From: Hadesarchaea archaeon
Lineage (GTDB): Archaea; Hadarchaeota; Hadarchaeia; Hadarchaeales; Hadarchaeaceae
Length of the DNA: 34,430 nucleotides
Direction of reading: 5' to 3'
NCBI GenBank assembly: GCA_030616305.1
Contig: JAUWXQ010000002.1
Location: 1-34,430, forward strand
In this document: piece after piece, positions 3,924 to 19,717 of the stretch
Layout of the letters: each line of letters opens with the position of its first letter
Numbering within the stretch: the first letter of the stretch is position 1
Made by a program: the position numbers and the translations under genes
The notes under the pieces: generated by a model
What the model was told of the DNA's origin: nothing
Databases searched by the model: none
Seen by the model: the letters and a program-made list of their open reading frames with translations, nothing else

Positions 3924-6191
3924 TTAGTAGTGCATCCTCGTCGCTTCTTCCGTTATGCGCTTGCTTTTTCTCTCGGTAAAAGTTTCATATGTTTTGACAA
4001 TCTCCGGTGTCAGAGAGGGTTTGATCCCCTCCATCGCATCGCGAAAGTGCTGCATCCCGACCTCTTTACCCTTTATGTCCTTGCGTAGCACAAGCATCGC
4101 GGCTTCCCGGCACAGGGCGGCGATGTCTGAGCCCGAGTATTCATCGGTTTCCTTCGCGAGTAGCTTGAGGTTAACATCCTTCGCGAGCGGCATTTTTTTG
4201 GTGTGGATTTTCAGTATTTCCAAGCGAGCTTTCTCATCGGGAGCTGGGACCAATACCAGTCTGTCGAAGCGTCCTGGGCGGAGTAACGCGGGGTCTATCA
4301 AGTCAGGACGGTTTGTAGCGCCGATAACAACAACATTTTCAAGTTTTTCCAGTCCATCGAGTTCGGTCAGTAATTGACTTATTACGCGCTCTGTTACGTG
4401 GGTGTCTCCGAACCCTGAGCCACGTCGGGGCACAAGCGCATCAATCTCGTCGAAGAAAATTATCGTTGGGGCTGCCATCTTGGCTTTGCGGAACGTTTCT
4501 CTCACCCCCTTCTCAGACTCCCCTACCCATTTGCTCAGGAGCTGGGGCCCTTTGATTGAGATGAAGTTCGCCTCGCTCTCCGTCGCTACCGCTCGTGCAA
4601 GCAGGGTTTTACCTGTACCTGGCGGGCCGTACAGAAGAATACCATGTGGGGGCTCTATGCCAACGCGTTTGAAAGCATCCGGATGTGTCAACGGCCATTC
4701 GACAGCCTCGATTAGTTCCTGTTTTGCCCGCGCTAGTCCACCAACGTCGTCCCAGTGCACATTGGGAACCTCGATCAAAACCTCACGCAGCGCAGAGGGT
4801 TCGGCCAGTCTCATCGCGTTGTCAAAGTCTTCCTTTGTTACTTGTAGTTTCTCGAGCACCTCGGGCGGGATAATTTTTTCCTCGAGTTTTATCTCAGGGA
4901 GAATGCCTCGCAGAGCGCTCATTGCAGCCTCCTTTGCCAAGGCCTCGAGATCCGCGCCGACGAAGCCGTGCGTGATGTCCGCGTAATGGTCGAGGTCAAT
5001 ATCCTTCGCGAGTGGCATTCCTCGGGTGTGAATCTGCAGGATTTCCTTCCGCCCATCACGGTCAGGTACCCCTATCTCTATCTCGCGGTCAAATCTACCC
5101 GGGCGACGGATTGCTGGGTCCAAGGCATTTGGACGGTTGGTGGCTCCGATGACTATGACCTTCCCACGGGCCTTTAAACCATCGAGCGCTGTGCAAAGTG
5201 TTGCCACCACGCGCCGCTCGACCTCGCCAGTGACCTCCTCTCGCTTTGGAGCTACTGTGTCGAGTTCATCGATGAAGACTATTGAGGGAGCGTTCTTCTC
5301 CGCCTGTTCAAATATTTCCCTGAGCCGTGCCTCCGACTCGCCGTACCATTTACTCATAATCTCAGGTCCAGCAATCGAGACGAAATTTGCCCCCGACTCG
5401 TTTGCAACCGCCTTGGCGATGAGGGTTTTGCCTGTTCCCGGGGCCCCGTGAAGCAGCACTCCTTTAGGCGGCTCGATACCTAAACGATCGAAAATCTCAG
5501 GATGCTTTAGCGGTAGCTCTATCATTTCACGCACGCGCTGGAGCTCATCCTTAAGTCCTCCAATGTCTTCATAGGTAACCGCTGGCACCTTTAGTTCTTT
5601 AACCTCAACAGCTTGTGGAAGGACCTCGACCTCTGTCATGTCTGTCACGAGCACGATACCAGCAGGATTCGTGTTGACGACTGAAAATTTCATCTCACCG
5701 AATCCGAACGGCAATGCCATCCCGCCGAAGACGCCGCCGAAGAACTGTTCAAATAGGTCCCCTCCCATGCGCACGGGTTCCTCGGGAGGCGTCGGGGCAA
5801 TCAGGTCTCCTTTAGCCATGGGTCTCCCAAGCAAATTGCGTTTGATGATCTCCCCGGATGCCATGAACCTGACCCGGGGGTCGGTGGGAGCGATAGTAAC
5901 ATGTTTAGCCTCTTTCATTGAGGCTTTCCGCACCGTGGCCTTTTCTCCTATCGATGTGCCAGCGTTGTGACGGATGAGCCCATCGACTCGGATAATTTCC
6001 AGTCCTGTGTCCTCTGGGAATCCCTTTATCGCAATCGCACCGGTCGAGCGAGAACCAGTTATCTCGACGTAATCGCCCTGTTTGATGCCAATCCGCTTCA
6101 TTACCCCCTCATCGATTAAAGCAAAACCGCGGTTGACGTAGGATTGGTGGCGATTTTCCGCGACAACTAGCTTTAACTCTTTTTCAGGCAT
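3924..6191 (-). CDS. cdc48: Cdc48/VCP/p97-type AAA+ ATPase (two AAA domains)
   Basis: It has an N-domain followed by two Walker A motifs (GAPGTGKTL and GPPGTGKTL), two Walker B motifs (IVFIDELD and IIFFDEID) and SRH regions. I prefer ATG 6191 ([17 protein letters not shown] upstream) over the TTG at 6218 in the ORF track. Confidence 0.95.
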
Positions 6192-6401
6192 TCCATTACC
6201 TCTCACTCTCAACTTCAAACCTGTACCAATCTAAGTGCTCGTTGAACTCTTTAAAGATTTTTCCCACCATTTTGGCGTATTCCTCCTCGGTTAGGAGAGT
6301 GCTTTGGTTCACGAACTTACAGACATCCCTCGGCAGCTTAGGAGTTCAGGGGAGTGGTCTCCCTGTCTTTGAGGTGGGGGACGAGAGCGGATATTTTTTC
6401 C

Positions 6402-6410
6402 TTTATAAAA
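6402..6410 (+). promoter_or_regulatory. TATA-box-like element (TTTATAAAA) upstream of the LAGLIDADG ORF
   Basis: An AT box preceded by a T-rich stretch lies about 53 nt upstream of ATG 6463. A G-rich SD-like AAGGGG lies about 10 nt upstream of the start. Confidence 0.35.
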
Positions 6411-6462
6411 TACCTTCGCCCAATTAAAAAACAGCGAGCAAGAATGAAGGGGAATTTAAACC

Positions 6463-6807
6463 ATGCAGAAGTCGTCTAAAAGCTGGGTAATAGGCTTTGT
6501 GGAGGGCGAAGGGTGCTTTACTTACACCACCGTGGGAGGCAAAAAATACCCTCGCTTTTATATCACTCAAAAAGGAGAGAAGGGAAAGAATGTTCTTGAA
6601 ATGATACGAGAGACTATGAGTATAGAGGGCATTGAACTAGTACGTGATGGTAAGCGGGATGTGTGGTATCTATACTCCTCCACAGCTATAGATGTGAACA
6701 AGAGGATAGTTGACTACTTTAATGGACGCCTAATGGCAAAGAAGCCATCTTTTAAGCGCTATAAACGATTGGTAATGAAAAAGTACTGCTTAAGGCGGGG
6801 AGGCTGA
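6463..6807 (+). mobile_element. Free-standing single-motif LAGLIDADG homing-endonuclease-like gene (114 aa)
   Basis: The N-terminal motif SWVIGFVEGEGCF is LAGLIDADG helix 1. The C-terminal pattern VNKRIVDYFNGRLMAKKPSFKRYKRLV resembles the conserved tail of LAGLIDADG_1 domains. The gene is not embedded in an intron, intein or rRNA. Confidence 0.7.
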
Positions 6808-7044
6808 TAAGTGGGCAATATGGTTTTGATTTGGAGATGAAGTTCTCTGGTCACCGGATTACTTCGAACCCCTTTTCCTACAGTTTCTTCGGGTACTCCG
6901 TAGTGTTTCCTCCTAAAGATAACAATACAATCCTCGCTGCGATGAAACTCGTAACGATTATAGGTGTAGGGGGAAAAATCACATGGCGGAAATTTCATGT
7001 ACGAAAATTTGAAGCCGATTTACGAACCAAAAAAGGATAAAAAA

Positions 7045-7710
7045 ATGAAGATTGTCGTGCTGTTTTCGGGAGGTGCCAGCGCCGTTCCTTTCATGGTCGG
7101 AGGCGAGGAGCATGAAGTGGTCGGCGCTATTTCTACCAACAAAAATGCTTCGGGAATAAAGAAGCTCGAGAAGCTAGGAATATCGGTCGAAGTAGCGGAT
7201 ATCCGCGATTTCTACGGAGACAAACCGATCACGGACATGAAGATGAGGGAGGCACATGATGAAAAACTTATGTCGATTATAGACGAAAAGAAATGGGAGC
7301 CTGATATAATCGCATGTTCGGGCTACATGTACATTTTGACTAAGAAGTTTTTGGAAAAGTTTCAAGTTCTGAATGTGCATCCTGCGGATTTATCTATAAA
7401 GGAAAATGGGAAAAGAGAATACACAGGGGCAAATGCGGTCAAGGACCAGATGGAAGCCGGCGAAAAAGTCACAAGATCCACCATACATATAATGGACGAA
7501 AAGCCAGATCATGGTCCCATCTTGTTTGTGTCGGAGGACCTGCCAGTGGAGAACAGAGGTCCAAAGGAACAACAGGAGCTCATGAAGGAGAAATGTGATG
7601 GCCCTGCCTACAGGGAAACTCTAGATATGCTGTCAAAAGGTATGTTTGCCATGGATTCAAACAAAAATGTTTACGTCAAGCACGGGGACAGATGGGTGAA
7701 AAAGTTCTGA
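7045..7710 (+). CDS. purN: Phosphoribosylglycinamide formyltransferase-like (PurN family)
   Basis: The N-terminus is MKIVVLFSGGAS. The catalytic N-x-H lies in VLNVHPADLS and the Asp in IHIMDEKPDHGPIL. The protein has an atypical insertion (SIKENGKREYTG) and a long C-terminal tail. ATG 7045 is preferred over 6997. Confidence 0.75.
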   Translation: MKIVVLFSGGASAVPFMVGGEEHEVVGAISTNKNASGIKKLEKLGISVEVADIRDFYGDKPITDMKMREAHDEKLMSIIDEKKWEPDIIACSGYMYILTKKFLEKFQVLNVHPADLSIKENGKREYTGANAVKDQMEAGEKVTRSTIHIMDEKPDHGPILFVSEDLPVENRGPKEQQELMKEKCDGPAYRETLDMLSKGMFAMDSNKNVYVKHGDRWVKKF

Positions 7711-7719
7711 GGTGTTGAA

Positions 7720-9105
7720 TTGGCTATTGGAATTCTAGGGATAAGCTATGGAAGCAGGTTCGCTTGCATGGCAGATTCTCTTTCCAGAAGTGGTCACAAT
7801 GTAAAACTCTTCATAGCGGACAAGCAGGGAAATCCTTACAATATAAAAAAGGCGGGGGAGACGGGAGGCAAACACATCGTAATTCCAGATTTGAGTGTAG
7901 ATGATATTACCAAATTTGCGAAGAGACATGAGAAGGAGATAGACTTCGGGGTAGTAGGTCCTGAAACCCCGGGTATGAACGGAATTAGGGACATGATTGA
8001 AAAAGAAACAAAAATAAAAATGATTTGCCCGACCGCCGAGTATTTTGTCGAGCGCAGCAAGGCCGAGCAGAGGAGGTTGATAGAGAAGATAGTCCCCTCG
8101 GCAAATCCAAAGTTCAAGGTCTTCGATTCCAGTGCCCATGGCTCAAAAAATGAAGTTAAAAAGGATGTCTACAAGTGGCTAGACGAGATCGGAGACGAAG
8201 TAGCCGTAAAACCAGATGCGCCAGCAACGGGGAAGGGAGTAGGCGTCTGGGGGGATCATTTCACATCCAGAGAAAATATGTTCGAAAATTATTTCCTACC
8301 AAATTTCGAGAAGGGCCCGGTGATAGTCGAGGAAAAGTTAGAGGGAGAAGAGTTTTCACTGCAGTTCGTTTCCGACGGAGAGCATTTGGTTCCCACCCCC
8401 GCTGTCAGAGATTACAAGAGGGCTTTCGACTGGGACTTGGGACCCAATACGGGGGGGATGGGCTCTTACAAGGATAGAGGAGATTTGCTCCCATTCATGA
8501 AGGAAAAAGACTGGAGAGAATCGCTGGAGATAGGAGAGAAGATTCATGAGGGATTGAAGAAGGTCGGAAAAAACCCAAGAGTTAGAGGAAATCTGTACAT
8601 GGCGTACATAATCACAAAAAATGGTGTGAAAGTCCTTGAGATAAACAGTAGGTGGGGTGACCCAGAAGTAATGAATATTCTGCCAATTTTGAAAAACGAT
8701 TTCGTCGACGTTTGCTTCAAAAGTTTAGAGGGTAATTTAAGAAAACTCGCTTTTGAAGATAAGGCCACAGTTGTAACTTACGCCGTTCCTCTAGGGTATG
8801 GAGGATATGCAAGTTACTCAGGCCATAAAAAAGTGGATCTAAGCAAGGCTGAAAAATTAAAGGAAAAGTACGGAGATAATCTGAGAATTTATCCAGGCGC
8901 CATGGAGCTAAGGGACGGGGAAACTCATGCTTTGAGGTCCAGAGCTGTTGCTATAGTAGGGATATCCAACACATTAGATGAGGCCAGGGAAATCTCCATG
9001 GAAGGAATTAGGAAAATTGATGGCTCCTTAAGGCATAGAGAAGACATAGCCCTCCCGGAGTACATCAACAGAAGCAAAAAACACATGGAAGAACTCTTGG
9101 TATGA
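7720..9105 (+). CDS. purD: Phosphoribosylamine-glycine ligase (GAR synthetase), divergent N-terminus
   Basis: ATP-grasp motifs are present: VKPDAPATGKGVGV, EEKLEGEEFSLQFVSDGEH, RDYKRAFDWDLGPNTGGMGSY and VLEINSRWGDPE. The start is TTG. Confidence 0.85.
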   Translation: MAIGILGISYGSRFACMADSLSRSGHNVKLFIADKQGNPYNIKKAGETGGKHIVIPDLSVDDITKFAKRHEKEIDFGVVGPETPGMNGIRDMIEKETKIKMICPTAEYFVERSKAEQRRLIEKIVPSANPKFKVFDSSAHGSKNEVKKDVYKWLDEIGDEVAVKPDAPATGKGVGVWGDHFTSRENMFENYFLPNFEKGPVIVEEKLEGEEFSLQFVSDGEHLVPTPAVRDYKRAFDWDLGPNTGGMGSYKDRGDLLPFMKEKDWRESLEIGEKIHEGLKKVGKNPRVRGNLYMAYIITKNGVKVLEINSRWGDPEVMNILPILKNDFVDVCFKSLEGNLRKLAFEDKATVVTYAVPLGYGGYASYSGHKKVDLSKAEKLKEKYGDNLRIYPGAMELRDGETHALRSRAVAIVGISNTLDEAREISMEGIRKIDGSLRHREDIALPEYINRSKKHMEELLV

Positions 9106-9181
9106 AAATGGCGCCCCGCGTAAGAAAATTTCATAATAATCTTCTTAAGGCAATTCACGATAGTTAAAGCGAGATGATTAA

Positions 9182-10591
9182 ATGAGTGGAATTTTCGGTA
9201 TAGTGTCCCGAAAGGATTGTTCGGAAGAGCTATTTTACGGCACGGATTATCTCTCCCACTTGGGCACGGAATATGGCGGCCTGGTAGTTTTTGGGGAAAA
9301 AATTGTAAGAAAAATCCACACTTTGAGACAGAGTCAGTTCAAATCAAAGTTTTATGATGATCACAAGGACATGCGTGGCAATAGTGGGTTGGGCGTGGTC
9401 AGCGCTAAAGAAGTACAGCCGGTCTGTTTAGATTCAAAATTTGGCCCGTTCTGCATATGTATGACTGGCTTAATACAAAATGCCGAAGAGCTGGCCGACG
9501 AATTACACAAAAAAGGCATATCGTTCAGCGAGATAACAGAAACAGGCGTGAACTCGACTGAACTTGTTGCTAAGCTCATTGCAGAGGGAGAGACAATTAT
9601 AGAAGGCATTAATCATATGTTCGGCAAAATTAGGGGTTCTTGTTCGCTTATCTTGGTTAATAACGAGGGCATCTATGCTATTCGGGATAAGTTTGGTTAT
9701 AGTCCACTTGTGGTCGGGCGAAAGGAGGACTCGTGGGCAGTAACTTCCGAGACTTCAGCTTTTTATAATCTAGGTTTTGAAATCAAAAAATATCTTTTGC
9801 CTGGAGAAATAGTTTTGCTCAACCCTTCTGGGATGTCCCAAAAGCAAAAAGGTACAACCATAGGTCAAATAAACGGCTTTTTATGGATTTATACGGGTTT
9901 CCCGGCTTCTTCCTATGAGGGAGTAAATGTAGAAATTGTCAGAGAGAGATGTGGAAGATATTTGGCAAGGAATGATAACGTCAAAGCAGATATGGTCGCT
10001 GGCGTTCCGGATTCAGGAACTACTCACGCAATTGGTTATGCTTTAGAATCAAAAATCCCTTTTAGAAGACCACTAATCAAATACACTCCGGGATATGACA
10101 GAAGTTATACACCACCTTCTCAGGAGACCAGAGATTTAATCGCGAAAATGAAGTTAATTCCGGTCAAAGATTTAATTGAGGGCCAAAGAATTATCCTTTG
10201 TGATGATTCTATAGTAAGGGGTACTCAATTAAAAAATTATACTGTGCAAAAATTGTGGGATAACGGAGCAAAGGAGATTCACTTGCGTATTGCCTGTCCC
10301 CCCTTAATGTTCCCGAGCGTATTTGATTATTCGACAAGGACGATAGAAGAATTGGCCGCTCGCCGCGCTATAAGGGCCATTGAAGGAAAAGATATCGAGG
10401 ATGTGAGTGAATACATCAACCCAGATTCAGAGAAGTATAAGAAAATGGTAGATCACATTGCCAAAGAGTTGGGCGTTACCTCGTTAAAATATCAAAGGTT
10501 GGATGATATGATAAAGGCTATTGGGCTTCCTAGGGATCGTCTCTGTCTATATGTATGGACCGGTGAGTCCATAGCCGACCAAAGGGCTTAG
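9182..10591 (+). CDS. purF: Amidophosphoribosyltransferase homologue with a degenerate glutaminase domain
   Basis: The architecture is Ntn fold plus PRTase. The PRPP loop RIILCDDSIVRGTQ and VAGVPDSGT are intact. The N-terminus reads MSGIFGIV (AGT Ser codon at 9185-9187) where the catalytic Cys is expected. Confidence 0.8.
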   Translation: MSGIFGIVSRKDCSEELFYGTDYLSHLGTEYGGLVVFGEKIVRKIHTLRQSQFKSKFYDDHKDMRGNSGLGVVSAKEVQPVCLDSKFGPFCICMTGLIQNAEELADELHKKGISFSEITETGVNSTELVAKLIAEGETIIEGINHMFGKIRGSCSLILVNNEGIYAIRDKFGYSPLVVGRKEDSWAVTSETSAFYNLGFEIKKYLLPGEIVLLNPSGMSQKQKGTTIGQINGFLWIYTGFPASSYEGVNVEIVRERCGRYLARNDNVKADMVAGVPDSGTTHAIGYALESKIPFRRPLIKYTPGYDRSYTPPSQETRDLIAKMKLIPVKDLIEGQRIILCDDSIVRGTQLKNYTVQKLWDNGAKEIHLRIACPPLMFPSVFDYSTRTIEELAARRAIRAIEGKDIEDVSEYINPDSEKYKKMVDHIAKELGVTSLKYQRLDDMIKAIGLPRDRLCLYVWTGESIADQRA

Positions 10592-10641
10592 TTTTATCGA
10601 AGGCTCGGTCACAGAGCGAAATAATTTGTTTTTTCCGCCGA

Positions 10642-11481
10642 CTAAAATTTCCGTTTGGTTAATCTTTCATAACACTCGACGTATCTCTTTGAGGTTTGGG
10701 AGATCACTTCTTCTGGCAGCGTTGGAGCTGGAGGCCGCTTATCCCACTTTATACTAAGGAGATAATCTCGCACGTATTGTTTATCGAAACTGTACTGATT
10801 CTTCCCCACCTCATAGCTGTCGAGCGGCCAAAATCTGGAAGAATCTGGCGTGAAGATTTCATCTATTAGCATAAGTTCTCCGTCATGAAAACCAAACTCG
10901 AATTTTGTATCTGCGACGATAATGCCATTAGTTTCTGCTTTTTTTGAAACTTGCTCGTAGAGTTTAATGCAGGTTTTTTCGATTTGGTAGGTGATATCTC
11001 CACCGAGCTTTTCTACGACATCTCTTTTGGTCATCTCGATGTCATGCCCGGTTTCCGCTTTGGTAGTAGGGGTAAGAATCGGCTCAGATAATTTGGAAGC
11101 TTTGTTCAAATCCTTTGGTAGTTTTATCCCAGATATCGCCTTGCCTGAACGATAGTTTTCCCAAGCCGAACCATAGAGGTAACCGCGGACGACGAACTCG
11201 ATTTTTATCGGCTTGGCTTTCCTCACGAGCATCGTTCGCTGGTCAATGACATCTATCAAGTGGTTTGGGATTATTTCCTTAAGCTCATTGAACCAGTAAG
11301 CTGATAACCTGTTCAAAGCTTCCCCCTTGCGGGGTATTCCGTTGGGCAAAATGACATCGAAAGCCGAGATTCTATCGGTGGAGACGACAAGCAATTTGTC
11401 GGCCAAGTCGTAGATGTCCCTTACCTTCCCGCGCTTGAGCAGCTTGAGGGGGAGGCAAGACTCCGTCAGGACCTCTTCCAT
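10642..11481 (-). CDS. purC: SAICAR synthetase
   Basis: Motifs LLKRGKVRDIYDL and IIVADTKFEFGF are present, and the 279-aa length is typical. Confidence 0.9.
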   Translation of the reverse strand: MEEVLTESCLPLKLLKRGKVRDIYDLADKLLVVSTDRISAFDVILPNGIPRKGEALNRLSAYWFNELKEIIPNHLIDVIDQRTMLVRKAKPIKIEFVVRGYLYGSAWENYRSGKAISGIKLPKDLNKASKLSEPILTPTTKAETGHDIEMTKRDVVEKLGGDITYQIEKTCIKLYEQVSKKAETNGIIVADTKFEFGFHDGELMLIDEIFTPDSSRFWPLDSYEVGKNQYSFDKQYVRDYLLSIKWDKRPPAPTLPEEVISQTSKRYVECYERLTKRKF

Positions 11482-11485
11482 CGGA

Positions 11486-11968
11486 TCACTTTCGGCGAAG
11501 TGCTCGGTCTCCCGCTTCCACTTTTTCTTTCTTCTTGTGCTGGTACTCTGTGACCTTCTTAGAGAGTCCTTCGTCGCCTAGTGCTAGGATCTTCGCGGCC
11601 GCCAGAGCAGCAGCCTCGGGCTCCAGCACGACAAGTGGAGCGACGCCACTAGGCATGCGGAGTGATGAATAAATGTCGATGCCTGCAAATTTTTCTGAGT
11701 AAGGAGGGCATGCTATCACAGGATATTTGGTATTCGCATCGACCAACCCTGAAAGAGCATTTGACCTACCCGCAATCGTTATGTAGACCAATTCACCCCT
11801 GCGTTTTTCGTATTCTTTCAATATTTCAAGTAGCTTCTTGGGTGTCTTGTGCGCTGAAGCGATCCGTTGGTCGAAGTCTATCCCAAACTCTTTCAACGTA
11901 CGCCTAAGCGGTTCGGCAAAATCGACATCCACCTTGGAGCCGAGCAGGATAACGACTCTTCGCGACAT
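11486..11968 (-). CDS. purE: PurE-family (N5-)CAIR mutase / AIR carboxylase
   Basis: It has VVILLGSKVD, SAHKTP and SSLRMPSGVAP. The 70s-loop is atypical (IAGRSNALSG instead of AGGAAHLPG). The gene sits 4 nt upstream of purC. Confidence 0.75.
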   Translation of the reverse strand: MSRRVVILLGSKVDVDFAEPLRRTLKEFGIDFDQRIASAHKTPKKLLEILKEYEKRRGELVYITIAGRSNALSGLVDANTKYPVIACPPYSEKFAGIDIYSSLRMPSGVAPLVVLEPEAAALAAAKILALGDEGLSKKVTEYQHKKKEKVEAGDRALRRK

Positions 11969-12071
11969 TCATTGACACTCTTCAGGGCGAGATTTATAGA
12001 TTTCTCAGGGGGTGCTCCGCTAAGGTTAAAGAGGTTAGGGGAGTAGAATTTTTGGTCGGGGTGACAATAGG

Positions 12072-13526
12072 ATGACAGAAAAATTTGATTATGGTACTTT
12101 CCTCTCTCCTTTCACTTGGCGTTATGGAAGCCCCGAGATGAGGAAGATTTTCTCTGAAATCAATTACAGAGTGGCATGGAGAAAAATTTGGGTGGCTCTC
12201 GCCGAAGCTCAGTCGAAGTATGGTATTGTTACTCGGGAGGAGCTAGCCGACCTGAAATCGAAAATGGATCCTGAGCACATAGATCTCAAGAGGGCGCACG
12301 AGATCGAACGAGAGATACGGCACGACTTGATGGCCGAGATCAAATCGTATGCCGAGCAGTGTCCAACCGGTGGAGGAAAAATCCACCTCGGTGCGACGTC
12401 TATGGATATCGAGGACAACGCCGAAGTGTTGCGGATTAAAGCTGCAATTGACATCGTGCTCACCAGACTTGTCAACTGTTTGAACTCCCTTTCCAGACAA
12501 ATCCTCAAATTTAAAGATTTGCCGTGCATTGGCTGGACCCACCTCCAGCCAGCCGAGCCGACGACACTTGGTTACAGGTTGGCTGGCTATGCACAGGATC
12601 TAGCCCTCGACATTTGTAGTGTGGAGAACCTTCTTCGAGATTTCGTGAAGGGTAAGGGGATAAAAGGCGCCGTGGGCACCTCCGCTAGTTTTCAAGCGTT
12701 GCTGAAAGGAAAAGGCAGAGCGAGCGTGATTGAAGACCAGGTGATGAAAAAGCTTGGTCTTGAAGCATTTCCAATTTCAACTCAGACTTACCCGAGGAAG
12801 CTCGATTATTTGGTCCTAACCGTCTTGGCGAGCATAGCCCAGAGCTTGCATAAATTTGGAGTTGACCTGAGGCATTTGCAGTCACCCGCATACGGGGAGT
12901 TATCAGAGCCCATCGGGAAAGCACGGGTGGGCTCCTCGGCCATGCCTTTTAAGAAAAACCCTATATCGGCCGAGCGAATGTGTTCCCTAACCAGATACAT
13001 TTCGACTTTGCCGGAAGTAATGTGGGAGAACGCGGCTCAGACGATACTCGAACGTACCCTCGATGACTCAGCTAATCGAAGAGTGGTGCTCGCCGAGTCT
13101 TTCTTGGCCTTGGACGAGTGCTTGATGATATATGACCAATTGGCACGCGGTCTTGTTGTCTACCCTGTGATGATAAAACGAAACTTGGAACGCTATGCAC
13201 CTTTCGCGGCCACCGAAGCCGTATTGATGAAGCTCGTTGAGCGAGGCGGGAACAGGCAACGTATGCACGAGAAGCTCCGGGAGCTCTCATTCAAAGCATG
13301 GGAAAAAGTGATGGCAGGAGAGCAAAATCCGCTGCCCAATCTGTTGAAAAAAGATCGGACGATAGGCTCCAAGTTGAGCAATAAGGAAATAGATGAGCTG
13401 CTCGATCCGAATAAACACTTGGGTGACGCCAGTGAGCGCGGTGAGAAATTCGTGAAAACCACCATTAAACCGCTTCTATCGAAGTACAGAGACAGGGTAG
13501 GAAAGAAAAAGGACGCCGAGTTTTAG
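12072..13526 (+). CDS. purB: Adenylosuccinate lyase
   Basis: It carries the fumarate-lyase signature GSSAMPFKKNP, plus GATSMDIEDNA and WTHLQPAEPTT. Confidence 0.92.
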   Translation: MTEKFDYGTFLSPFTWRYGSPEMRKIFSEINYRVAWRKIWVALAEAQSKYGIVTREELADLKSKMDPEHIDLKRAHEIEREIRHDLMAEIKSYAEQCPTGGGKIHLGATSMDIEDNAEVLRIKAAIDIVLTRLVNCLNSLSRQILKFKDLPCIGWTHLQPAEPTTLGYRLAGYAQDLALDICSVENLLRDFVKGKGIKGAVGTSASFQALLKGKGRASVIEDQVMKKLGLEAFPISTQTYPRKLDYLVLTVLASIAQSLHKFGVDLRHLQSPAYGELSEPIGKARVGSSAMPFKKNPISAERMCSLTRYISTLPEVMWENAAQTILERTLDDSANRRVVLAESFLALDECLMIYDQLARGLVVYPVMIKRNLERYAPFAATEAVLMKLVERGGNRQRMHEKLRELSFKAWEKVMAGEQNPLPNLLKKDRTIGSKLSNKEIDELLDPNKHLGDASERGEKFVKTTIKPLLSKYRDRVGKKKDAEF

Positions 13527-13553
13527 GCGCCGGTGGTTCTCTTGGCGGTGATT

Positions 13554-14408
13554 ATGGATGGAAAAACTCTTGCTGAAGAACTCAAACGGGAGATCGCCGC
13601 ACGCGTAAAAACTATTAAAGAACGAGGATTAACACCGACTCTTGCTACGGTCTTGGTCGGAGACGACACCTCATCGAGAACTTACGTGAGCGGAAAGCGC
13701 AGGGATTGTGAGGAGGTTGGCATCGACTTCAAGCTACATAAACTCTCTTCGAGCGTTACCGAACGTGAGTTGCTAGGACTCATCGAAAAGTTGAACGGCG
13801 ACTATAAGGTCCATGGCATATTTGTGCAGTTGCCGCTTCCCAAACACATAAACAGAAAAAAAGTGACAGCTAGCATAAGTCCTAGAAAAGACGTCGATGG
13901 GTTGCACCCCTACAACGTTGGAAAGCTCTGGCTCGGTATGTACGAGTCCGAGAACGACCTCTTGCCTTGTACACCTAAGGGAATCGTGAAACTTTTGGAT
14001 CGTTACAATATCGAGCTTGAGGGTAAACTGGCTGTGATAATAAACCGGAGCGACCTCGTCGGTAAACCGCTCGCAAAGCTATTTTTAGATAGAAACGCGA
14101 CGGTTGTCGTCTGTCATTCCAAGACGCCAGAGCTAGAAAAACAAACTAGAACCGCGGATGTTCTAGTCAGTGCAGTTGGAAGACGTCCAAGTTTTGTTGT
14201 TAGCGAGAAAATGGTCAAAAAAGGTGCGGTCGTCGTCGATGTCGGCATGAACTACGTTGGGGGCAAGTTGCAGGGTGATGTTGATTTCGAGCGGGTGAAA
14301 GAAAAAGCATCCTACATCGCACCTGTTCCTGGCGGTGTTGGCCCCATGACTCGCGTGATGTTGTTGCATAACGTTTTGATAGCCACAAAGCTTGCGGAAG
14401 GAGCATAG
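13554..14408 (+). CDS. folD: Bifunctional 5,10-methylene-THF dehydrogenase/cyclohydrolase
   Basis: Motifs VQLPLPKHI, INRSDLVGKPLAKLFLDRNATVVVCHSKT and PVPGGVGPMT are present. ATG 13554 (MDGKTLA) is preferred over GTG 13533. Confidence 0.9.
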   Translation: MDGKTLAEELKREIAARVKTIKERGLTPTLATVLVGDDTSSRTYVSGKRRDCEEVGIDFKLHKLSSSVTERELLGLIEKLNGDYKVHGIFVQLPLPKHINRKKVTASISPRKDVDGLHPYNVGKLWLGMYESENDLLPCTPKGIVKLLDRYNIELEGKLAVIINRSDLVGKPLAKLFLDRNATVVVCHSKTPELEKQTRTADVLVSAVGRRPSFVVSEKMVKKGAVVVDVGMNYVGGKLQGDVDFERVKEKASYIAPVPGGVGPMTRVMLLHNVLIATKLAEGA

Positions 14409-15004
14409 TGTCAAACGAGAAAAAAGTCATCAGACAAAAATTCAAGTCGTTGAGGATGCGCCTCTCTAAGGAAGAGGTGGTAATAAAAAGTGCACAGATA
14501 AAAAAGTCGCTCTTCGAACTGCCCGAATTTGCGAGGTCGAAAACCATCGTGTTTTACGTTGCTAAGCAAGTCAGCCGTGAGGTCGAAACTGAAGAGATGA
14601 TCAAGGAAAGCTTGAAGATGGGCAAACGCGTGCTGGTGCCTGTCGTTGACAATGCAGCGAGAAAAATACTCTTCTCTGAATTGCGAGATTACGATTCGGA
14701 GCTAGCTCCTGGCGCATTTGATATCCTTGAGCCCAAACCTTCGTGTAGACGACTTGTTCCCGCGTCTGAGAGCGACCTCATCATCGTGCCCGGAGTGGCG
14801 TTTGATATGGGGGGACATAGGCTTGGTTATGGTGGGGCCTACTACGATAGGCTTCTGAGAGAGTTAGCTTCGGTCAAACCCTCGCTACCGTTAGTCGGTT
14901 TGGCGTACGAACCGCAGGTCGTAGAGAAATTGCCGAATACCTCGCGTGACGTGCCGATAAACATCTTAGTGACTGAAAAAAGAGTGCTCCGTTTTAAGCT
15001 GTAA
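14408..15004 (+). CDS. 5-formyltetrahydrofolate cyclo-ligase (MTHFS)
   Basis: The characteristic VPGVAFDMGGHRLGYGGAYYDRLL is present. The GTG start overlaps the folD stop (TAGTG). Confidence 0.85.
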   Translation: MSNEKKVIRQKFKSLRMRLSKEEVVIKSAQIKKSLFELPEFARSKTIVFYVAKQVSREVETEEMIKESLKMGKRVLVPVVDNAARKILFSELRDYDSELAPGAFDILEPKPSCRRLVPASESDLIIVPGVAFDMGGHRLGYGGAYYDRLLRELASVKPSLPLVGLAYEPQVVEKLPNTSRDVPINILVTEKRVLRFKL

Positions 15005-15029
15005 AGACTATTCAAAAAGTGGCGGGACT

Positions 15030-16181
15030 ATGAGTTCCAAGTATGCTGAAGTGGGCATTGACGTGAGGAAGAAGGGCATAGAGGTGTTCAAGCCTTCCTT
15101 GGAGAGTCTTTTTCCCAAAGCCTTCTGTCCTGTGATTCGTGATTCAAAATTTAGAAAATATGGTATGGTGCTTCACACCGACGGCGCTGGGAGCAAGCCC
15201 CTCCAGAACTACCTGCACTGGCGTGAAACAGGCGAGAGCAGATGGTTCTGCGGCATTGCCCATGATGTCCTTGCGATGAATATCGATGATGTAATGTGTG
15301 TGGGCGCAGCGCCATTGGGTTTTGTCGATTATATTGCGGTAAATCAATCGAGGGTTCCTAAAAAAGAATTGCTGTCTGCTCTTAATACTGGCTTCAAGGA
15401 ATGCTTTGGCATGTTGAAGAAGTATGGGATAAAGATTTCATTCCTCGGTGGCGAAACCGCCGATTTGCCAGACCAGCTTCGAACGCTAGATGTCTCTGGC
15501 ACGGTAAGCGCTCGTGTGGAGTTGTCCAAAGTTATAAGCGGCGAGAGAATCAAGCCAGGCGACGTGATCATAGGTTTGAGGGGTGGCGCACGCACGAAAT
15601 ATGAGCGGCAGGAGAACAGCGGGATAATGTGCAATGGAATAACGCTCGCGAGACATTGCCTGATGAAAAGCGAATATGAGCGCAAGTACCCCGAGCTCAA
15701 AGACCCTAATGCGAAGGGCTACTATGGCAGGTTTGCGTTTGATGATTACCTCGACGAACTCGAAATGACGGTCGGCGAAGCCATTTCATCGCCAACTAGG
15801 ATTTTCGCCCCAGTGATCGCAAAGATTCTTGAGAAGCATGGCAAGCAAGTGACCGGTTTGGTTCACAATACCGGCGGTGGGCAGACGAAGTGCTTGAGAT
15901 TGGGGGAGAACGTCCACTACCTTAAGGACGACCTTATCAAGCCTGACCCGATATTTCGGTTGATTCAGCGAGAAGCGAAAGTAAGCTGGCGAGAGATGTT
16001 TGAGGATTTCAACATTGGTGTTGGTTTTGAAATAATAGCTAGAAAAAAAGGCGTGGAGGAAATTTTAGACGTTGCAGAGAGATTTGGTTTAGGGGCAAAA
16101 GTGATCGGAAGATGTGATAAAAGCGATGGCAGAAACAAACTGACCATTCGGAGTGAATTTGGAAGATTTGAGTACAGCTGA
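15030..16181 (+). CDS. purM: AIR synthetase (PurM family), divergent form
   Basis: PurM-superfamily motifs are present: HTDGAGSKP, DVLAMNIDDVMCVGAAPLGFVDYIA, GGETADLP, HNTGGGQTK and FNIGVGFEII. Confidence 0.8.
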   Translation: MSSKYAEVGIDVRKKGIEVFKPSLESLFPKAFCPVIRDSKFRKYGMVLHTDGAGSKPLQNYLHWRETGESRWFCGIAHDVLAMNIDDVMCVGAAPLGFVDYIAVNQSRVPKKELLSALNTGFKECFGMLKKYGIKISFLGGETADLPDQLRTLDVSGTVSARVELSKVISGERIKPGDVIIGLRGGARTKYERQENSGIMCNGITLARHCLMKSEYERKYPELKDPNAKGYYGRFAFDDYLDELEMTVGEAISSPTRIFAPVIAKILEKHGKQVTGLVHNTGGGQTKCLRLGENVHYLKDDLIKPDPIFRLIQREAKVSWREMFEDFNIGVGFEIIARKKGVEEILDVAERFGLGAKVIGRCDKSDGRNKLTIRSEFGRFEYS

Positions 16182-16183
16182 AA

Positions 16184-18601
16184 ATGGACCATAGAAAAGG
16201 ATTAAAAACCCTTTGTATACATCAACCGTGTGAGACCGTGACTTCACAAGTCTATGTAAAAAAAGATTTCCCGTTTGACTTCTTTGAAATTGATTTGCTG
16301 CGCGCGAGCGATGAGCAACTCTCACAAATAAGTCGAGAGCTTGGTATTGGGTTAGATCTCGAAGAAATGAAAAAATGCAAACGACATTTCTCAAAATTGG
16401 GAAGAAACCCAACCGATGTAGAGCTTCAGAGTATCGGCCAGACATGGTCGGAGCACTGTTATCATAAGACATTCAAGGGCGACGTGCGGATCGGAAGCCG
16501 AAAGGTGAGGCTTTTCAAGGACTTCATTGCAAAAGCTACAAAGGAGCTTTCACATTCTTGGTGCGTTTCGGTTTTTGAGGACAATGCAGGCATCGTAGAT
16601 TTCGAGCGTGGTTATGGGATAGCTGCCAAGGTTGAAACCCATAATCATCCCTCGGCGATTCATCCATTTGGAGGCGCAGCCACTGGTCTAGGTGGCCTGA
16701 TAAGAGATATTATGGGGGTTTGGGCCCAGCCGATCGCGAGCATCGGGGTATTTGGATTTGGCCCTCAGGACTACTCACAAAAGCTCCCCCCTGGCATGAA
16801 GCATCCAAAAACCATCTTCGAAGGAGTTGTAGAGGGTGTCAGGCAGTACGGCAGTCATATGAAGATCCCAAACATCGGCGGTGCGATTTACTTCGACGAA
16901 AGCTACGTTGGAAACCCAATAGTGTATTGTGGTTGCGTCGGCCTCCTCCCCCTTGACAAATACTTCAGAAGGACTAAAGTTGGCGATGTGGCATTACTCG
17001 CGGGCGGAAAGACTGGTAAAGAGGGTATTCACGGCGTTACTTTTGCCTCGGCGGAAATCGGAAAGATGGAAGGAGGGGAAAAAGCGGCTGAGTTGACATT
17101 CGATCCTGCAGTACAGGAGAGACTGGCGAGGGCGATCTTCAGAATCAGAGACGAGAACCTAGCTTCGGGCATAACTGATTTAGGTGGCGGTGGGATTTCT
17201 TGTGCGACTGGCGAAACCGCTTTTAGGTCAGGGTGTGGCATCGTCGTGGATCTCGAGAAAGCCCCGTTAAAACTCTCGAGCATGGTGCTTTGGGAAATTT
17301 GGGTTTCAGAATCACAGGATAGAATGTTTTTAACCATTCCCGAAAAGAACCTCGAGAAAGTGTTAAAGATATTTGAAGAAGAAAATGTTGAAGCGACACC
17401 TATTGGGAAATTCGTCAGAGGTAATTCTTTAGTGGTCAGATATCGGGGTCAAGAGGTCGCGAACTTAGATTTACAGTTCCTTTTCTCCCCACCGGAGGCT
17501 AAGAGGATAGCCAAGTGGAAGGCACCGAAGTTAGTTGAACCCAAATTTGCACAACCCCGTGATTTAACGAAAATTTTGCTTAGATTGCTGGCTGCAGCGA
17601 ATATCGGAAGTAGAGGTGGATTGATAAAGACTGATGAATCCTGGAAAAACGTAGTTCTGAGACCGTTCCATGGAAAACACGGTGGGCCAAACGATGCCGC
17701 GATTGTAAAACCTTTGCAGGATTCTCAACGCGGAGTGGTTATTTCTTGCGGTATAAACCCCAATTACGGACGAATCGATCCTTATTGGATGGCAGCTTCA
17801 AACGTTGAAGAAGCGATTAGAAACAACATTGCGGTAGGCGGTCAGCGAATCGCGTTGCTTGACAACTTCGTGTGGGGTAGTCCGGAGAAGGCCGAGCAAT
17901 TAGGTACGCTCGTACGTGCTTGCGAGGCTTGTTACGATTTCGCAAAGGCTTTTGATGCCCCTTATATTTCGGGCAAAGATAGCCTCTACAATGAGTCGGT
18001 GTTGGGGCCAGTGGCACCCACACTGCTGATAACAGCCATAGGTATCATCTCAGATGTCAGAAAAGCTGTTTCGGTAGACCTCAAAGGACCCGGTGGCGCG
18101 ATTTACATTGTTGGCCGAACTTATCCTGAGCTGGGCGGTTCGGAGTATTACAAGTTGTTTGGGAAAGTTGGTAGAAGTGTCCCCAAGGTCAAGGCGGCCA
18201 AAGCGAAAAAAGTGTTAAGTTCAATAACAAAAGCGATCGACTCAGGTTACGTTCGAGCTTGTCATGATTTTTCAGAGGGCGGGCTAGCCGTTGCTGCAGC
18301 AGAGATGGTACTCAGCAGCGATTATGGTGCTGAATTAGACTTGAAAAATGTTCCAGTTTCGATGAGCGGCAAGGCGAGAAATGATTTCATCTTGTTCTCT
18401 GAGTCGAACAGCAGATTTCTTGTTGAAGTTAAACAAGGAAAAGAGGAAAAGTTTGAAAAGTTAATAGAAGGGGATTTCGCGCTGGTCGGCCGGGTAAGTG
18501 GGGAAGATGGGTTTTCTGTAAACGGATTGAAAGGCAAAAAAATAATCGACATCAGTTCCGAAAAATTGCGAAAAGCTTGGAAAGAAGCTTTGTCGAAGTA
18601 A
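16184..18601 (+). CDS. purL: FGAM synthase II (large subunit)
   Basis: Motifs WSEHCYHKTF and VETHNHPSAIHPFGGAATGLGGLIRDI are present, with a duplicated PurM-like fold. The start is 3 nt after the purM stop. No purQ or purS lies adjacent. Confidence 0.92.
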   Translation: MDHRKGLKTLCIHQPCETVTSQVYVKKDFPFDFFEIDLLRASDEQLSQISRELGIGLDLEEMKKCKRHFSKLGRNPTDVELQSIGQTWSEHCYHKTFKGDVRIGSRKVRLFKDFIAKATKELSHSWCVSVFEDNAGIVDFERGYGIAAKVETHNHPSAIHPFGGAATGLGGLIRDIMGVWAQPIASIGVFGFGPQDYSQKLPPGMKHPKTIFEGVVEGVRQYGSHMKIPNIGGAIYFDESYVGNPIVYCGCVGLLPLDKYFRRTKVGDVALLAGGKTGKEGIHGVTFASAEIGKMEGGEKAAELTFDPAVQERLARAIFRIRDENLASGITDLGGGGISCATGETAFRSGCGIVVDLEKAPLKLSSMVLWEIWVSESQDRMFLTIPEKNLEKVLKIFEEENVEATPIGKFVRGNSLVVRYRGQEVANLDLQFLFSPPEAKRIAKWKAPKLVEPKFAQPRDLTKILLRLLAAANIGSRGGLIKTDESWKNVVLRPFHGKHGGPNDAAIVKPLQDSQRGVVISCGINPNYGRIDPYWMAASNVEEAIRNNIAVGGQRIALLDNFVWGSPEKAEQLGTLVRACEACYDFAKAFDAPYISGKDSLYNESVLGPVAPTLLITAIGIISDVRKAVSVDLKGPGGAIYIVGRTYPELGGSEYYKLFGKVGRSVPKVKAAKAKKVLSSITKAIDSGYVRACHDFSEGGLAVAAAEMVLSSDYGAELDLKNVPVSMSGKARNDFILFSESNSRFLVEVKQGKEEKFEKLIEGDFALVGRVSGEDGFSVNGLKGKKIIDISSEKLRKAWKEALSK

Positions 18602-18613
18602 TTCGTCCGCGAG

Positions 18614-19552
18614 TCATTCAAATTCAATTGTGGCTGGAGGCTTGCCTGACAGATCAAAAAGCACATGGGTGACGGTTGGAAGTTTTTCTGTTATCCTTTT
18701 CTCGATTCTACGCAGGGTTTCCCACGGCAGAGCAGTTGGCTCAGCCGTCATAGCGTCTTTAGATTGAACCACTCTTACGACAACTATCTCGCCGTATTTT
18801 CTCTTCCTGGTTTTTGTCACGCCTGTCGCCCTATCCCGCATGAGTACCGCGAAAGCCTGAAAACACGGCACATCCTTGGTCGCGTCTTCTACTATTGCAG
18901 TTGCTTCTCTGATGAGTTCTACCCGTTCAGATGTCACCTCGCCTAAAACCCTTATCGATAAACCTGGGCCTGGGAACGGTTTTCTTTCAACGACTTCGCG
19001 TGGAAGGCCAAGTGCTCGTGCCACCCCCCTGACCTGCGGCTTGTAGAGATCCTTCAGCGGCTCGAGAACTTTGTATCCATACCTCTCGAGCGGGCTGATG
19101 CCTATCTGTTCGAGCACGTTATGTTGAGTCTTTACTCCACCTTTTGTCTCGACCACATCCGCTGCGATTGTTCCTTGCAGCAAACAGTCCACCTCGAGCT
19201 CGCGCGCGAGACGGGCGAATGTCAGATAGAAAGCCTCCCTGAACGCTCTCCTTTTCTCTTCGGGATCCACCCTGCCCTTGAGAGCTTCGAAGAAATAGTC
19301 CTTCACATCATAAATTCTCGCCTTCATGCCTAATCGTCTGAGTATCTTCACAACCTCTTGGGGTTCGCCTTTTCGCATCAACCCGTCATCCAGGAAAATG
19401 ACCTTTGACCTCTCGCCTACCGCTTTGTGCCCGAGCGCGGCCGTGGTCATGCTGTCCACGCCCCCGGAAGTTGCGGCCAGCGCGTCACCATTACCGATGG
19501 TTTGCCTTAGCCACGCGATTTTTTCATCCATAAATTTTTCGGGTTTGAACAT
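18614..19552 (-). CDS. guaA: GMP synthase subunit B (ATP pyrophosphatase domain)
   Basis: It has the PP-loop ATSGGVDS and the C-terminus GKPPATIEFE. ATG 19552 (MFKPEKF) is preferred over TTG 19600. No glutaminase subunit lies adjacent. Confidence 0.88.
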   Translation of the reverse strand: MFKPEKFMDEKIAWLRQTIGNGDALAATSGGVDSMTTAALGHKAVGERSKVIFLDDGLMRKGEPQEVVKILRRLGMKARIYDVKDYFFEALKGRVDPEEKRRAFREAFYLTFARLARELEVDCLLQGTIAADVVETKGGVKTQHNVLEQIGISPLERYGYKVLEPLKDLYKPQVRGVARALGLPREVVERKPFPGPGLSIRVLGEVTSERVELIREATAIVEDATKDVPCFQAFAVLMRDRATGVTKTRKRKYGEIVVVRVVQSKDAMTAEPTALPWETLRRIEKRITEKLPTVTHVLFDLSGKPPATIEFE

Positions 19553-19717
19553 TGACGGAACTATTTTTCCGTGTCTTAAATAGATTCCTCCATGCTTCAA
19601 GGAGTTTTAATTTCAATTTGGGTTTTGGATAATTTGGCTATTGTACGGATTCCGACGAACTCCTTCATTAAGTTGATATCGGTCTCACCAATTTAGCGTT
19701 TCACATGTTTTTGCTAA

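Follow-up and report, generated by a model that had tools for sequence, protein, structure and literature searches.

Results

A PurF homologue that begins with Ser

The window analysed here is a 34,430-nucleotide stretch of DNA (contig JAUWXQ010000002.1, assembly GCA_030616305.1, Hadesarchaea archaeon). It is archaeal, carrying genes for RadA, CDC48, an archaeal pilin and FlaI/FlaJ-like proteins, and it contains a purine biosynthesis (pur) cluster in the order purN-like, purD, purF', purC (minus strand), purE (minus strand), purB, folD, 5-formyl-tetrahydrofolate (5-formyl-THF) cyclo-ligase, purM and purL. In this study, we found that the gene called purF' here encodes a homologue of the amidophosphoribosyltransferase PurF in which the glutamine-hydrolysing site is dismantled: the nucleophile, Arg26, the Arg73/Tyr74 loop, Asn101 and Asp127 (E. 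coli numbering) are all gone. The coordinates of all features are collected in Table 1.

The product of the open reading frame (ORF) starts MSGIFGIV. Because an in-frame TAA abuts the ATG, no propeptide or upstream Cys is possible, and codon 2 is AGT, as a previous sequence-only reading of this DNA had stated. A Pfam scan of the protein reported only GATase_7, and the match to TIGR01134, the NCBIfam purF equivalog model, over residues 3-399 scored 214.7 bits, below the cut-off of 350. The closest solved structures by sequence are those of B. subtilis PurF (1gph and 1ao0; E ~1e-52), followed by plant and E. coli PurF, and identity to canonical PurFs is 23-33%. Structure prediction, which had been proposed along with that reading, gave an AlphaFold2 model (39-sequence alignment; mean predicted local distance difference test score, pLDDT, 77.5) that Foldseek matched to 1ao0 with template modelling (TM) scores of 0.78/0.80. 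The two-domain fold, an N-terminal nucleophile (Ntn) domain plus a type I phosphoribosyltransferase (PRTase) domain, is present in the model.

Dismantling of the glutamine site

Residues were mapped by three routes: phmmer of the window protein against B. subtilis PurF (1gph/1ao0), a MAFFT alignment including E. coli PurF from MG1655, and hhalign of a 39-sequence family profile against a profile of 20 diverse canonical PurFs (probability 100%, E 1.7e-84). The three alignments agree that Ser takes the place of Cys1, with a spacing from residue 1 to H25-x-G27 identical to that in E. coli; that HRG has become HLG, i.e. Arg26 is Leu (L27 in the window protein); that GHVRYPTAGSSS is reduced to GVV by the deletion of 8 residues, with Arg73, Tyr74 and Thr76 gone; and that HNGN has become MTGL, with Asn101 replaced by Thr (T95) and Gly102 retained (G96). 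Asp127 is the sole ambiguous position, where a 5-residue insertion leaves either Ser125 (phmmer) or Glu120 (hhalign) as its partner; as both of these positions vary within the family, neither alignment leaves an Asp there. The sequence-only reading had listed Cys1, Arg26, Arg73, Asn101 and Asp127 as replaced, and phmmer, MAFFT and hhalign bear out the whole list, Arg73 being lost by deletion; the profile alignment it had suggested did not restore the catalytic residues.

Arg26, Arg73, Tyr74, Asn101/Gly102 and Asp127 are invariant across the 20 canonical PurFs (alignment A2). These proteins have 14 invariant residues in the mapped part of the N-domain, six of which (His25, Gly27, Gln86, Pro87, Gly102 and Asn106) are retained by the PurF' family; the other eight, including every residue named in the sequence-only reading, are changed or deleted. 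We take the altered residues to have catalytic or glutamine-binding roles, which is our own reading of the structural literature on PurF. Asn101 is partly retained: most close bacterial members have Asn here, the window protein has Thr, and the position is variable across the wider clade described below. Around the former glutamine site the family has a set of invariant polar residues of its own (D22, Y23, H26, T29, R43, K54, E117, N124, E127 and K131).

PRTase half and Fe-S ligands

The PRPP-binding half of the protein (PRPP, phosphoribosyl pyrophosphate) is intact. Both VAGVPDSGT and the PRPP loop IILCDDSIVRGTQ are present, as previously noted for this DNA. All 117 full-length family members retain the equivalents of Y258, K326, R332, D366, D367 and S368 as well as the DDSIVRGT loop, D366 being D or E. 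The Phe334/Ile335 channel positions are occupied in the family by an invariant Tyr and a near-invariant Thr. In the AlphaFold2 model pLDDT is low at 303-312, as expected for a mobile flexible loop.

Only one of the four B. subtilis-type Fe-S cysteines is left in the window protein (N231, S379, C455 and V458), which agrees with the earlier remark that these cysteines are not evident. All four are present (CCCC) in 102 of the 117 full-length family members, namely the bacterial ones, which traces the wider PurF' family back to PurF of the Fe-S (B. subtilis) type. The reduced pattern is shared by the full-length proteins nearest to the window protein, 15 of 15 missing at least three ligands.

Breadth of the family and selection on it

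A search of 5.8 billion proteins gave at least 8000 matches, the best 120 of which are 65-93% identical to the window protein; among the matches listed, those named Hadesarchaea are closest, and Omnitrophota and allies account for the rest of the best 120. The PurF' family is large and already visible in databases, and the window protein is not an isolated oddity. At position 1 the 117 full-length members have Ser (109), Gly (6), Asp (1) or Asn (1) and never Cys, and codon 2 in independent relatives is AGT or AGC (Ser) or GGC (Gly), never TGY. P0002, at 93% identity to the window protein, starts MGGIFG, as do P0008/L002 and L092. In the wider clade, recognized among 1.84 billion cluster representatives by M[SGTA]G[ILF]FG together with the motif 'FYGTDYHSHLGT' and including an MGGFFG group from Bacteroidales, position 1 is S, G, T, A, N or D. 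Since Ser and Gly interchange at 93% identity, position 1 cannot be the nucleophile, and Ser1 as a substitute Ntn nucleophile was rejected.

When one genome per GTDB species was scanned, at least 600 stretches gave a match; all genome-locus counts given here refer to the best 80. Archaea among these 80 are Hadarchaeota and metagenome-assembled genomes (MAGs) labelled Methanosarcinales, Methanobacteriota, Altiarchaeota, Thermoplasmatota, Promethearchaeota and Hermodarchaeota. Bacteria are represented by Omnitrophota, Planctomycetota, Desulfobacterota, Elusimicrobiota, Gemmatimonadota, Acidobacteriota, Aminicenantes, Bacteroidales, Kiritimatiellia, Verrucomicrobiota, Spirochaetes, Anaerolineae and Clostridia.

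Identity between the window protein and the other aligned family members is 63% in the N-domain and 76% in the C-domain, and residues 1-30 rank among the most conserved stretches of PurF'. The ratio of nonsynonymous to synonymous substitution rates (dN/dS, Nei-Gojobori) among Hadarchaeota copies is 0.08-0.32 for the N-domain and 0.08-0.28 for the C-domain. Both domains are under purifying selection, and PurF' is a working gene. A fossil glutaminase domain, as the sequence-only reading had envisaged, was rejected on the conservation of the N-domain, its first 30 residues included, and its dN/dS. In a neighbour-joining (NJ) tree, indicative only as it carries no support values, the family falls inside a 'short-loop' PurF clade, with basal members that keep Cys1 and Arg26.

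One slot, two alternative genes

With the window PurD, 29 related loci were pulled from JGI (Joint Genome Institute) metagenomes and annotated by tblastn. Hadarchaeota relatives have the same pur order, plus purS, purQ, purH and pyrimidine genes; the shared order is purN-purD-[slot]-purC/E-purB-folD-purM-purS-purL-purQ. The slot is filled by PurF' on the plus strand in 10 metagenome loci as well as in the window, L002, L005 and L006, and by a canonical PurF on the minus strand, with a short propeptide, CGVFG, HRG and GHVRY, in 10 loci. None of these same-order Hadarchaeota-type clusters has both forms, and no canonical purF lies within ±10 kb of PurF' in the Hadarchaeota relatives, whose loci were covered over that span.

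The swap is seen most clearly between L092 (PurF') and L093 (canonical), the DNA of which is 84% identical over purN-purD and 89% identical from purC onward, and which differ only in a non-homologous slot cassette of ~1.5 kb. In blastn of the window against L093, the alignment gap likewise corresponds exactly to the PurF' gene. On PurF'-bearing contigs of 1,030,738, 67,190, 141,440, 36,844 and 34,430 bp, no canonical Hadarchaeota-type PurF was found among the 120 best clusters, an indirect check made with the canonical PurF of L093 as query and reaching down to 56% identity.

The canonical form is found in more distant Hadarchaeota clusters (PurD 62-68% identical), and PurF' of the window is 65-67% identical to proteins of Omnitrophota and Planctomycetota. 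Considering both, the simplest history would be that PurF' was acquired horizontally and displaced the resident purF. The GC content of PurF', 0.420, is the lowest of the cluster (neighbours 0.44-0.51) and is consistent with a foreign origin.

PurF' in bacterial loci

Nucleotide-synthesis genes are the most frequent PurF' neighbours across the 80 genome loci. In Omnitrophota-like bacteria the order is purB-purL-(purQ)-purF'-purM-purD-purE, with PurF' in the classical purF position. L007, L008, L012 and L026 have purL-(purQ)-purF'-purM-purD-purE and no canonical purF in the locus, as annotated by tblastn with archaeal queries, which distant bacterial pur genes can escape. L027 has purL-purQ-purF-purF'-purM.

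Other associations were also observed. The single most frequent neighbour is CarB, the large subunit of carbamoyl-phosphate synthase, within 4 kb in 11 of the 80 loci (L011 and 10 others). A LOG/lysine-decarboxylase-like gene (PF03641, PF18306) lies between purL and purQ/purF' in L007 (9295-9951) and L008 (8512-9183). Many bacterial copies of PurF' lie outside pur operons.

The surrounding pur cluster

Past purL the window has the ATP-pyrophosphatase subunit of guanosine monophosphate (GMP) synthase (guaA-C) on the minus strand. No second PurF-like sequence was found within the window, and tblastn with PurS and PurQ of a relative gave nothing anywhere in it; purM ends at 16181 and purL starts at 16184. 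The cluster (15030-19600 region) thus misses both glutamine-handling parts of the pathway. purS and purQ are also absent from the clusters of the closest relatives, L089, L109 and L111, and purS-purL-purQ is present in L092, L002, L005 and L006.

Table 1. Coordinates of the features in the window
Feature	Position	Strand	Remarks and evidence
PurF' gene	9182..10591	+	469-aa Cys-less PurF homologue; end coordinate includes the stop codon
In-frame TAA (9179-9181), ATG (9182-9184) and AGT (9185-9187; Ser for the Cys1 nucleophile)	9179..9187	+	From sequence; codon 2 of relatives is AGT/AGC/GGC
Ntn-fold domain, residues 1-228	9182..9865	+	S2, L27, T95, Asp127 equivalent absent; alignments, conservation, dN/dS
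G71-V-V-S74, site of the 8-residue glutamine-loop deletion (E. coli Arg73-Tyr74-Pro-Thr76...)	9392..9403	+	hhalign, phmmer, family loop lengths
Type I PRTase domain and C-terminal region	9866..10588	+	Catalytic residues conserved in the family; hhalign
Flexible-loop equivalent K300...P327, 'KYTPGYDRSYTPPSQETRDLIAKMKLIP'	10079..10162	+	Phe334/Ile335 channel residues replaced by Tyr/Thr; alignments
PRPP-binding loop C340-DDSIVRGTQ-349	10199..10228	+	Invariant in family alignment A1; aligns to E. coli DDSIVRGTT
Cassette unlike canonical-purF relatives	9089..10641	.	blastn; window homologous to L093 at 6945-9088 and 10642-16181 only
purN-like formyltransferase (6997-7710), purD (7720-9105)	6997..9105	+	NCBIfam and Pfam matches
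purC (10642-11481), purE (11486-11968)	10642..11968	-	Library matches
purB, folD, 5-formyl-THF cyclo-ligase, purM, purL (small type)	12072..18601	+	purS, purQ absent

Divergence covers the whole pur cluster and not PurF' alone, since the purN-like formyltransferase (81 bits against 150) and PurD (238 bits against 288) also fall under their NCBIfam equivalog cut-offs. Between CDC48 and the start of the cluster lies a free-standing ORF of 114 aa with a LAGLIDADG homing-endonuclease domain (6463-6807, plus strand; Pfam E 2.5e-9), where GC falls from ~0.53 to ~0.44. In L005, a 538-aa protein with a faint Glu_synthase match (5844-7460, minus strand) is encoded between guaA and purN of a Hadarchaeota nucleotide-synthesis supercluster.

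Discussion

We consider it probable that PurF' is an ammonia-dependent 5-phosphoribosylamine (PRA) synthase that has displaced the glutamine-dependent PurF. In this mechanism, PurF' would use its intact site for PRPP binding and phosphoribosyl transfer to convert PRPP and NH3 to PRA and PPi, the ammonia being drawn from solution and not from glutamine, and the unstable PRA would pass to PurD, which is encoded directly upstream. The gene would have come horizontally and taken over the position of an ancestral glutamine-dependent, Fe-S-type purF, and where both forms occur in other lineages they would be glutamine- and ammonia-dependent isozymes. That PurF' can act alone is indicated by the either/or occupancy of the slot and by the operons with PurF' only. 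The chemistry itself would be straightforward, because E. coli PurF with Cys1 replaced has been reported to lose glutamine use and keep ammonia use (Mei & Zalkin 1989, as cited in PMC3261824). We infer that the product is PRA, that free ammonia is the nitrogen source, and that a canonical purF is absent elsewhere in this genome. It is tempting to speculate that the conserved N-domain serves as a lid, an ammonia entry or an interface instead of a catalyst. The sequence-only reading had left two possibilities, a PRA synthase using ammonia or a paralogue recruited to another PRPP-dependent reaction; the purF slot, the swap with canonical purF and the PRTase residues favour the former, and the ammonia dependence stays presumptive.

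Several observations weigh against this interpretation. The case for PRA synthesis is one of genomic context, namely the pur-cluster position and the cassette swap with canonical purF, and the nitrogen donor is presumed. The conservation of the N-domain is too strong for a mere scaffold and may signal another function. In the PurF' of L005 (9812-11224) and L009 (10001-11413), from the Hadarchaeota MAG with the 1.03-Mb contig, codon 50 has changed from CAG to TAG, giving a single in-frame stop; the rest of the gene is intact, and its product is 82% identical to the window protein. Two assemblies have the identical sequence, and the TAG could result from a sequencing error or a recent inactivation, or could be read through. 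Furthermore, 11 of the 80 genome loci (Planctomycetota, Omnitrophota, Anaerolineae, a Methanosarcinales MAG and Asgard archaea) also carry a canonical purF no more than 10 kb from PurF', often adjacent or with only purM between, and canonical PurF is the second most frequent PurF' neighbour, after CarB. Considering this together with the true PurF that stands beside crenarchaeal PurF', the protein may normally work alongside PurF and not replace it.

These last points lead to the main rival explanation, in which PurF' is a non-glutaminase partner or regulatory subunit in mixed oligomers with a canonical PurF encoded elsewhere in the genome, much as other catalytically reduced paralogues may modulate a working enzyme. 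We regard it as unlikely. The proximity of the two genes agrees with it, as does the report that every Crenarchaeon examined has PurF and a Cys-less PurF' (PMC3261824), and strong conservation of a non-catalytic N-domain is what an interface would show. However, the slot in the Hadarchaeota clusters holds either one gene or the other, with a clean cassette swap, several bacteria have pur operons with PurF' only, and a Hadarchaeota-type canonical PurF was not found on the PurF'-bearing 1.03-Mb contig by the indirect check described above. All PRTase catalytic residues, moreover, are kept, which would be needless in a purely regulatory subunit. That PurF' runs a different reaction, transferring the phosphoribosyl group to another nucleophile or using another nitrogen donor at a remodelled N-domain pocket, seems to us quite improbable. 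The conservation of the N-domain, the new invariant polar residues around the old glutamine site, the Tyr/Thr pair at Phe334/Ile335, the Asn101-Gly102 kept in most close bacterial members and the many bacterial copies away from pur operons could all be read in its favour, but the range of residues at position 1 rules out an Ntn nucleophile, Asn101 is variable across the wider clade, and PurF' substitutes positionally for canonical purF in Hadarchaeota clusters that encode all other steps from PRPP to inosine monophosphate (IMP), leaving step 1 with no other candidate.

An artefact or a decaying gene has next to no probability. A single A-to-T change at 9185 would turn AGT into TGT and give Cys, which, together with misalignment of the other positions, the sequence-only reading had named as fatal to it, and the in-frame stop of L005/L009 might point to decay. 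Yet Cys occurs in none of the 117 full-length members, four other catalytic positions are also changed or deleted, and the dN/dS of 0.08-0.32 is that of a gene under constraint. The family-wide usage of codon 2, never TGY, and the TAA directly upstream led us to reject a sequencing error or a wrong start.

In an extended form of the ammonia-dependent reading, the disarmed glutaminase domain would be a repurposed module, for example for ammonium capture or gating, and PurF' would represent a distinct, widespread class of first-step enzyme that allows glutamine-free purine synthesis in anaerobes. The sub-lineage of the window would have gone furthest, with both amidotransfer steps of the cluster ammonia-dependent, because the cluster also has no purQ and purS (the glutaminase and coupling subunits of formylglycinamidine ribonucleotide, FGAM, synthase). 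We offer this only tentatively and think it doubtful as a whole.

The committed step of purine synthesis is, in textbooks, glutamine-dependent. Should PurF' prove to act alone and to depend on ammonia, purine synthesis would begin differently in a large share of uncultured anaerobes. The label 'amidophosphoribosyltransferase', which genome annotations give to both forms and which most cluster members carry, hides the difference between PurF' and PurF, and metabolic models would need to separate them. The natural cassette swap between close relatives provides a clean, testable case, and it bears on a question that dates from 2011, namely the role of Cys-less PurF paralogues.

Comparison with known systems

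Cys-less PurF paralogues were described in Crenarchaeota, and named PurF', by Brown, Hoopes, White & Sarisky (2011, Biol Direct 6:63, PMC3261824), who found both forms close together among the pur genes of each crenarchaeal genome and suggested, as a hypothesis only, that PurF' is an ammonia-dependent PRPP aminotransferase. A Cys-less PurF in pur clusters with a proposed ammonia dependence has thus been known since 2011, and the window protein is one member of a very large family. Databases already contain thousands of its sequences, filed under the generic name PurF. No later characterisation of Cys-less PurF paralogues was found in the searchable literature beyond that paper. Relative to the literature found, three points appear to be new: how widely the family is distributed, the interchange of Ser and Gly and the loss of the glutamine loop as traits of the family, and the in-situ replacement of canonical purF in Hadarchaeota.

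Like the window protein, crenarchaeal PurF' has no N-terminal Cys and is encoded among purine biosynthesis genes. Unlike it, crenarchaeal PurF' always stands beside a true PurF, and its position 1 is usually Ala or Val, whereas PurF' of the window is alone in its cluster, in the slot where relatives keep canonical PurF. An Ala/Val-1 group with the motif MAGxxGLS was considered as the crenarchaeal form and rejected, as its members proved to be from Patescibacteria, Acidobacteria and Aminicenantes. Mlab_0150 of Methanocorpusculum labreanum (PMC3261824) is described as a recent duplicate of that organism's own PurF, whereas the clade of the window protein is old and widespread and has lost the glutamine loop.

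With canonical PurF (EC 2.4.2.14; TIGR01134; 1ao0, 1gph, 1ecf), PurF' shares the fold, the PRPP loop, the flexible-loop Lys/Arg and the operon position, but canonical PurF has Cys1, Arg26, the Arg73/Tyr74 loop, Asn101 and Asp127. The [4Fe-4S] B. subtilis-type PurF has four Cys ligands, three of which are missing from the window protein. The nearest Cys-bearing relatives of PurF' (40% identity, 311 bits; NJ tree) are short-loop PurF homologues (P0162, P0183, P0196, P0207, P0213, P0235 and P0239), which have a 10-residue loop like that of PurF' in place of the 18-22-residue glutamine loop. In contrast to PurF', they keep Cys1 and HRG, and they have Ser, Asp, Thr or Asn at the Asn101 position; judging from these residues, they may still be amidotransferases, perhaps an unstudied variant. 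Ntn hydrolases with an N-terminal Ser or Thr conserve that residue as the nucleophile, whereas position 1 of PurF' is not conserved. Finally, single steps that exist in glutamine- and ammonia-dependent forms are familiar from AsnB and AsnA and from NH3-dependent NAD synthetase. In pairs of this type, however, the two forms have unrelated folds or the glutaminase domain is absent, whereas PurF' keeps the domain, conserved but disarmed.

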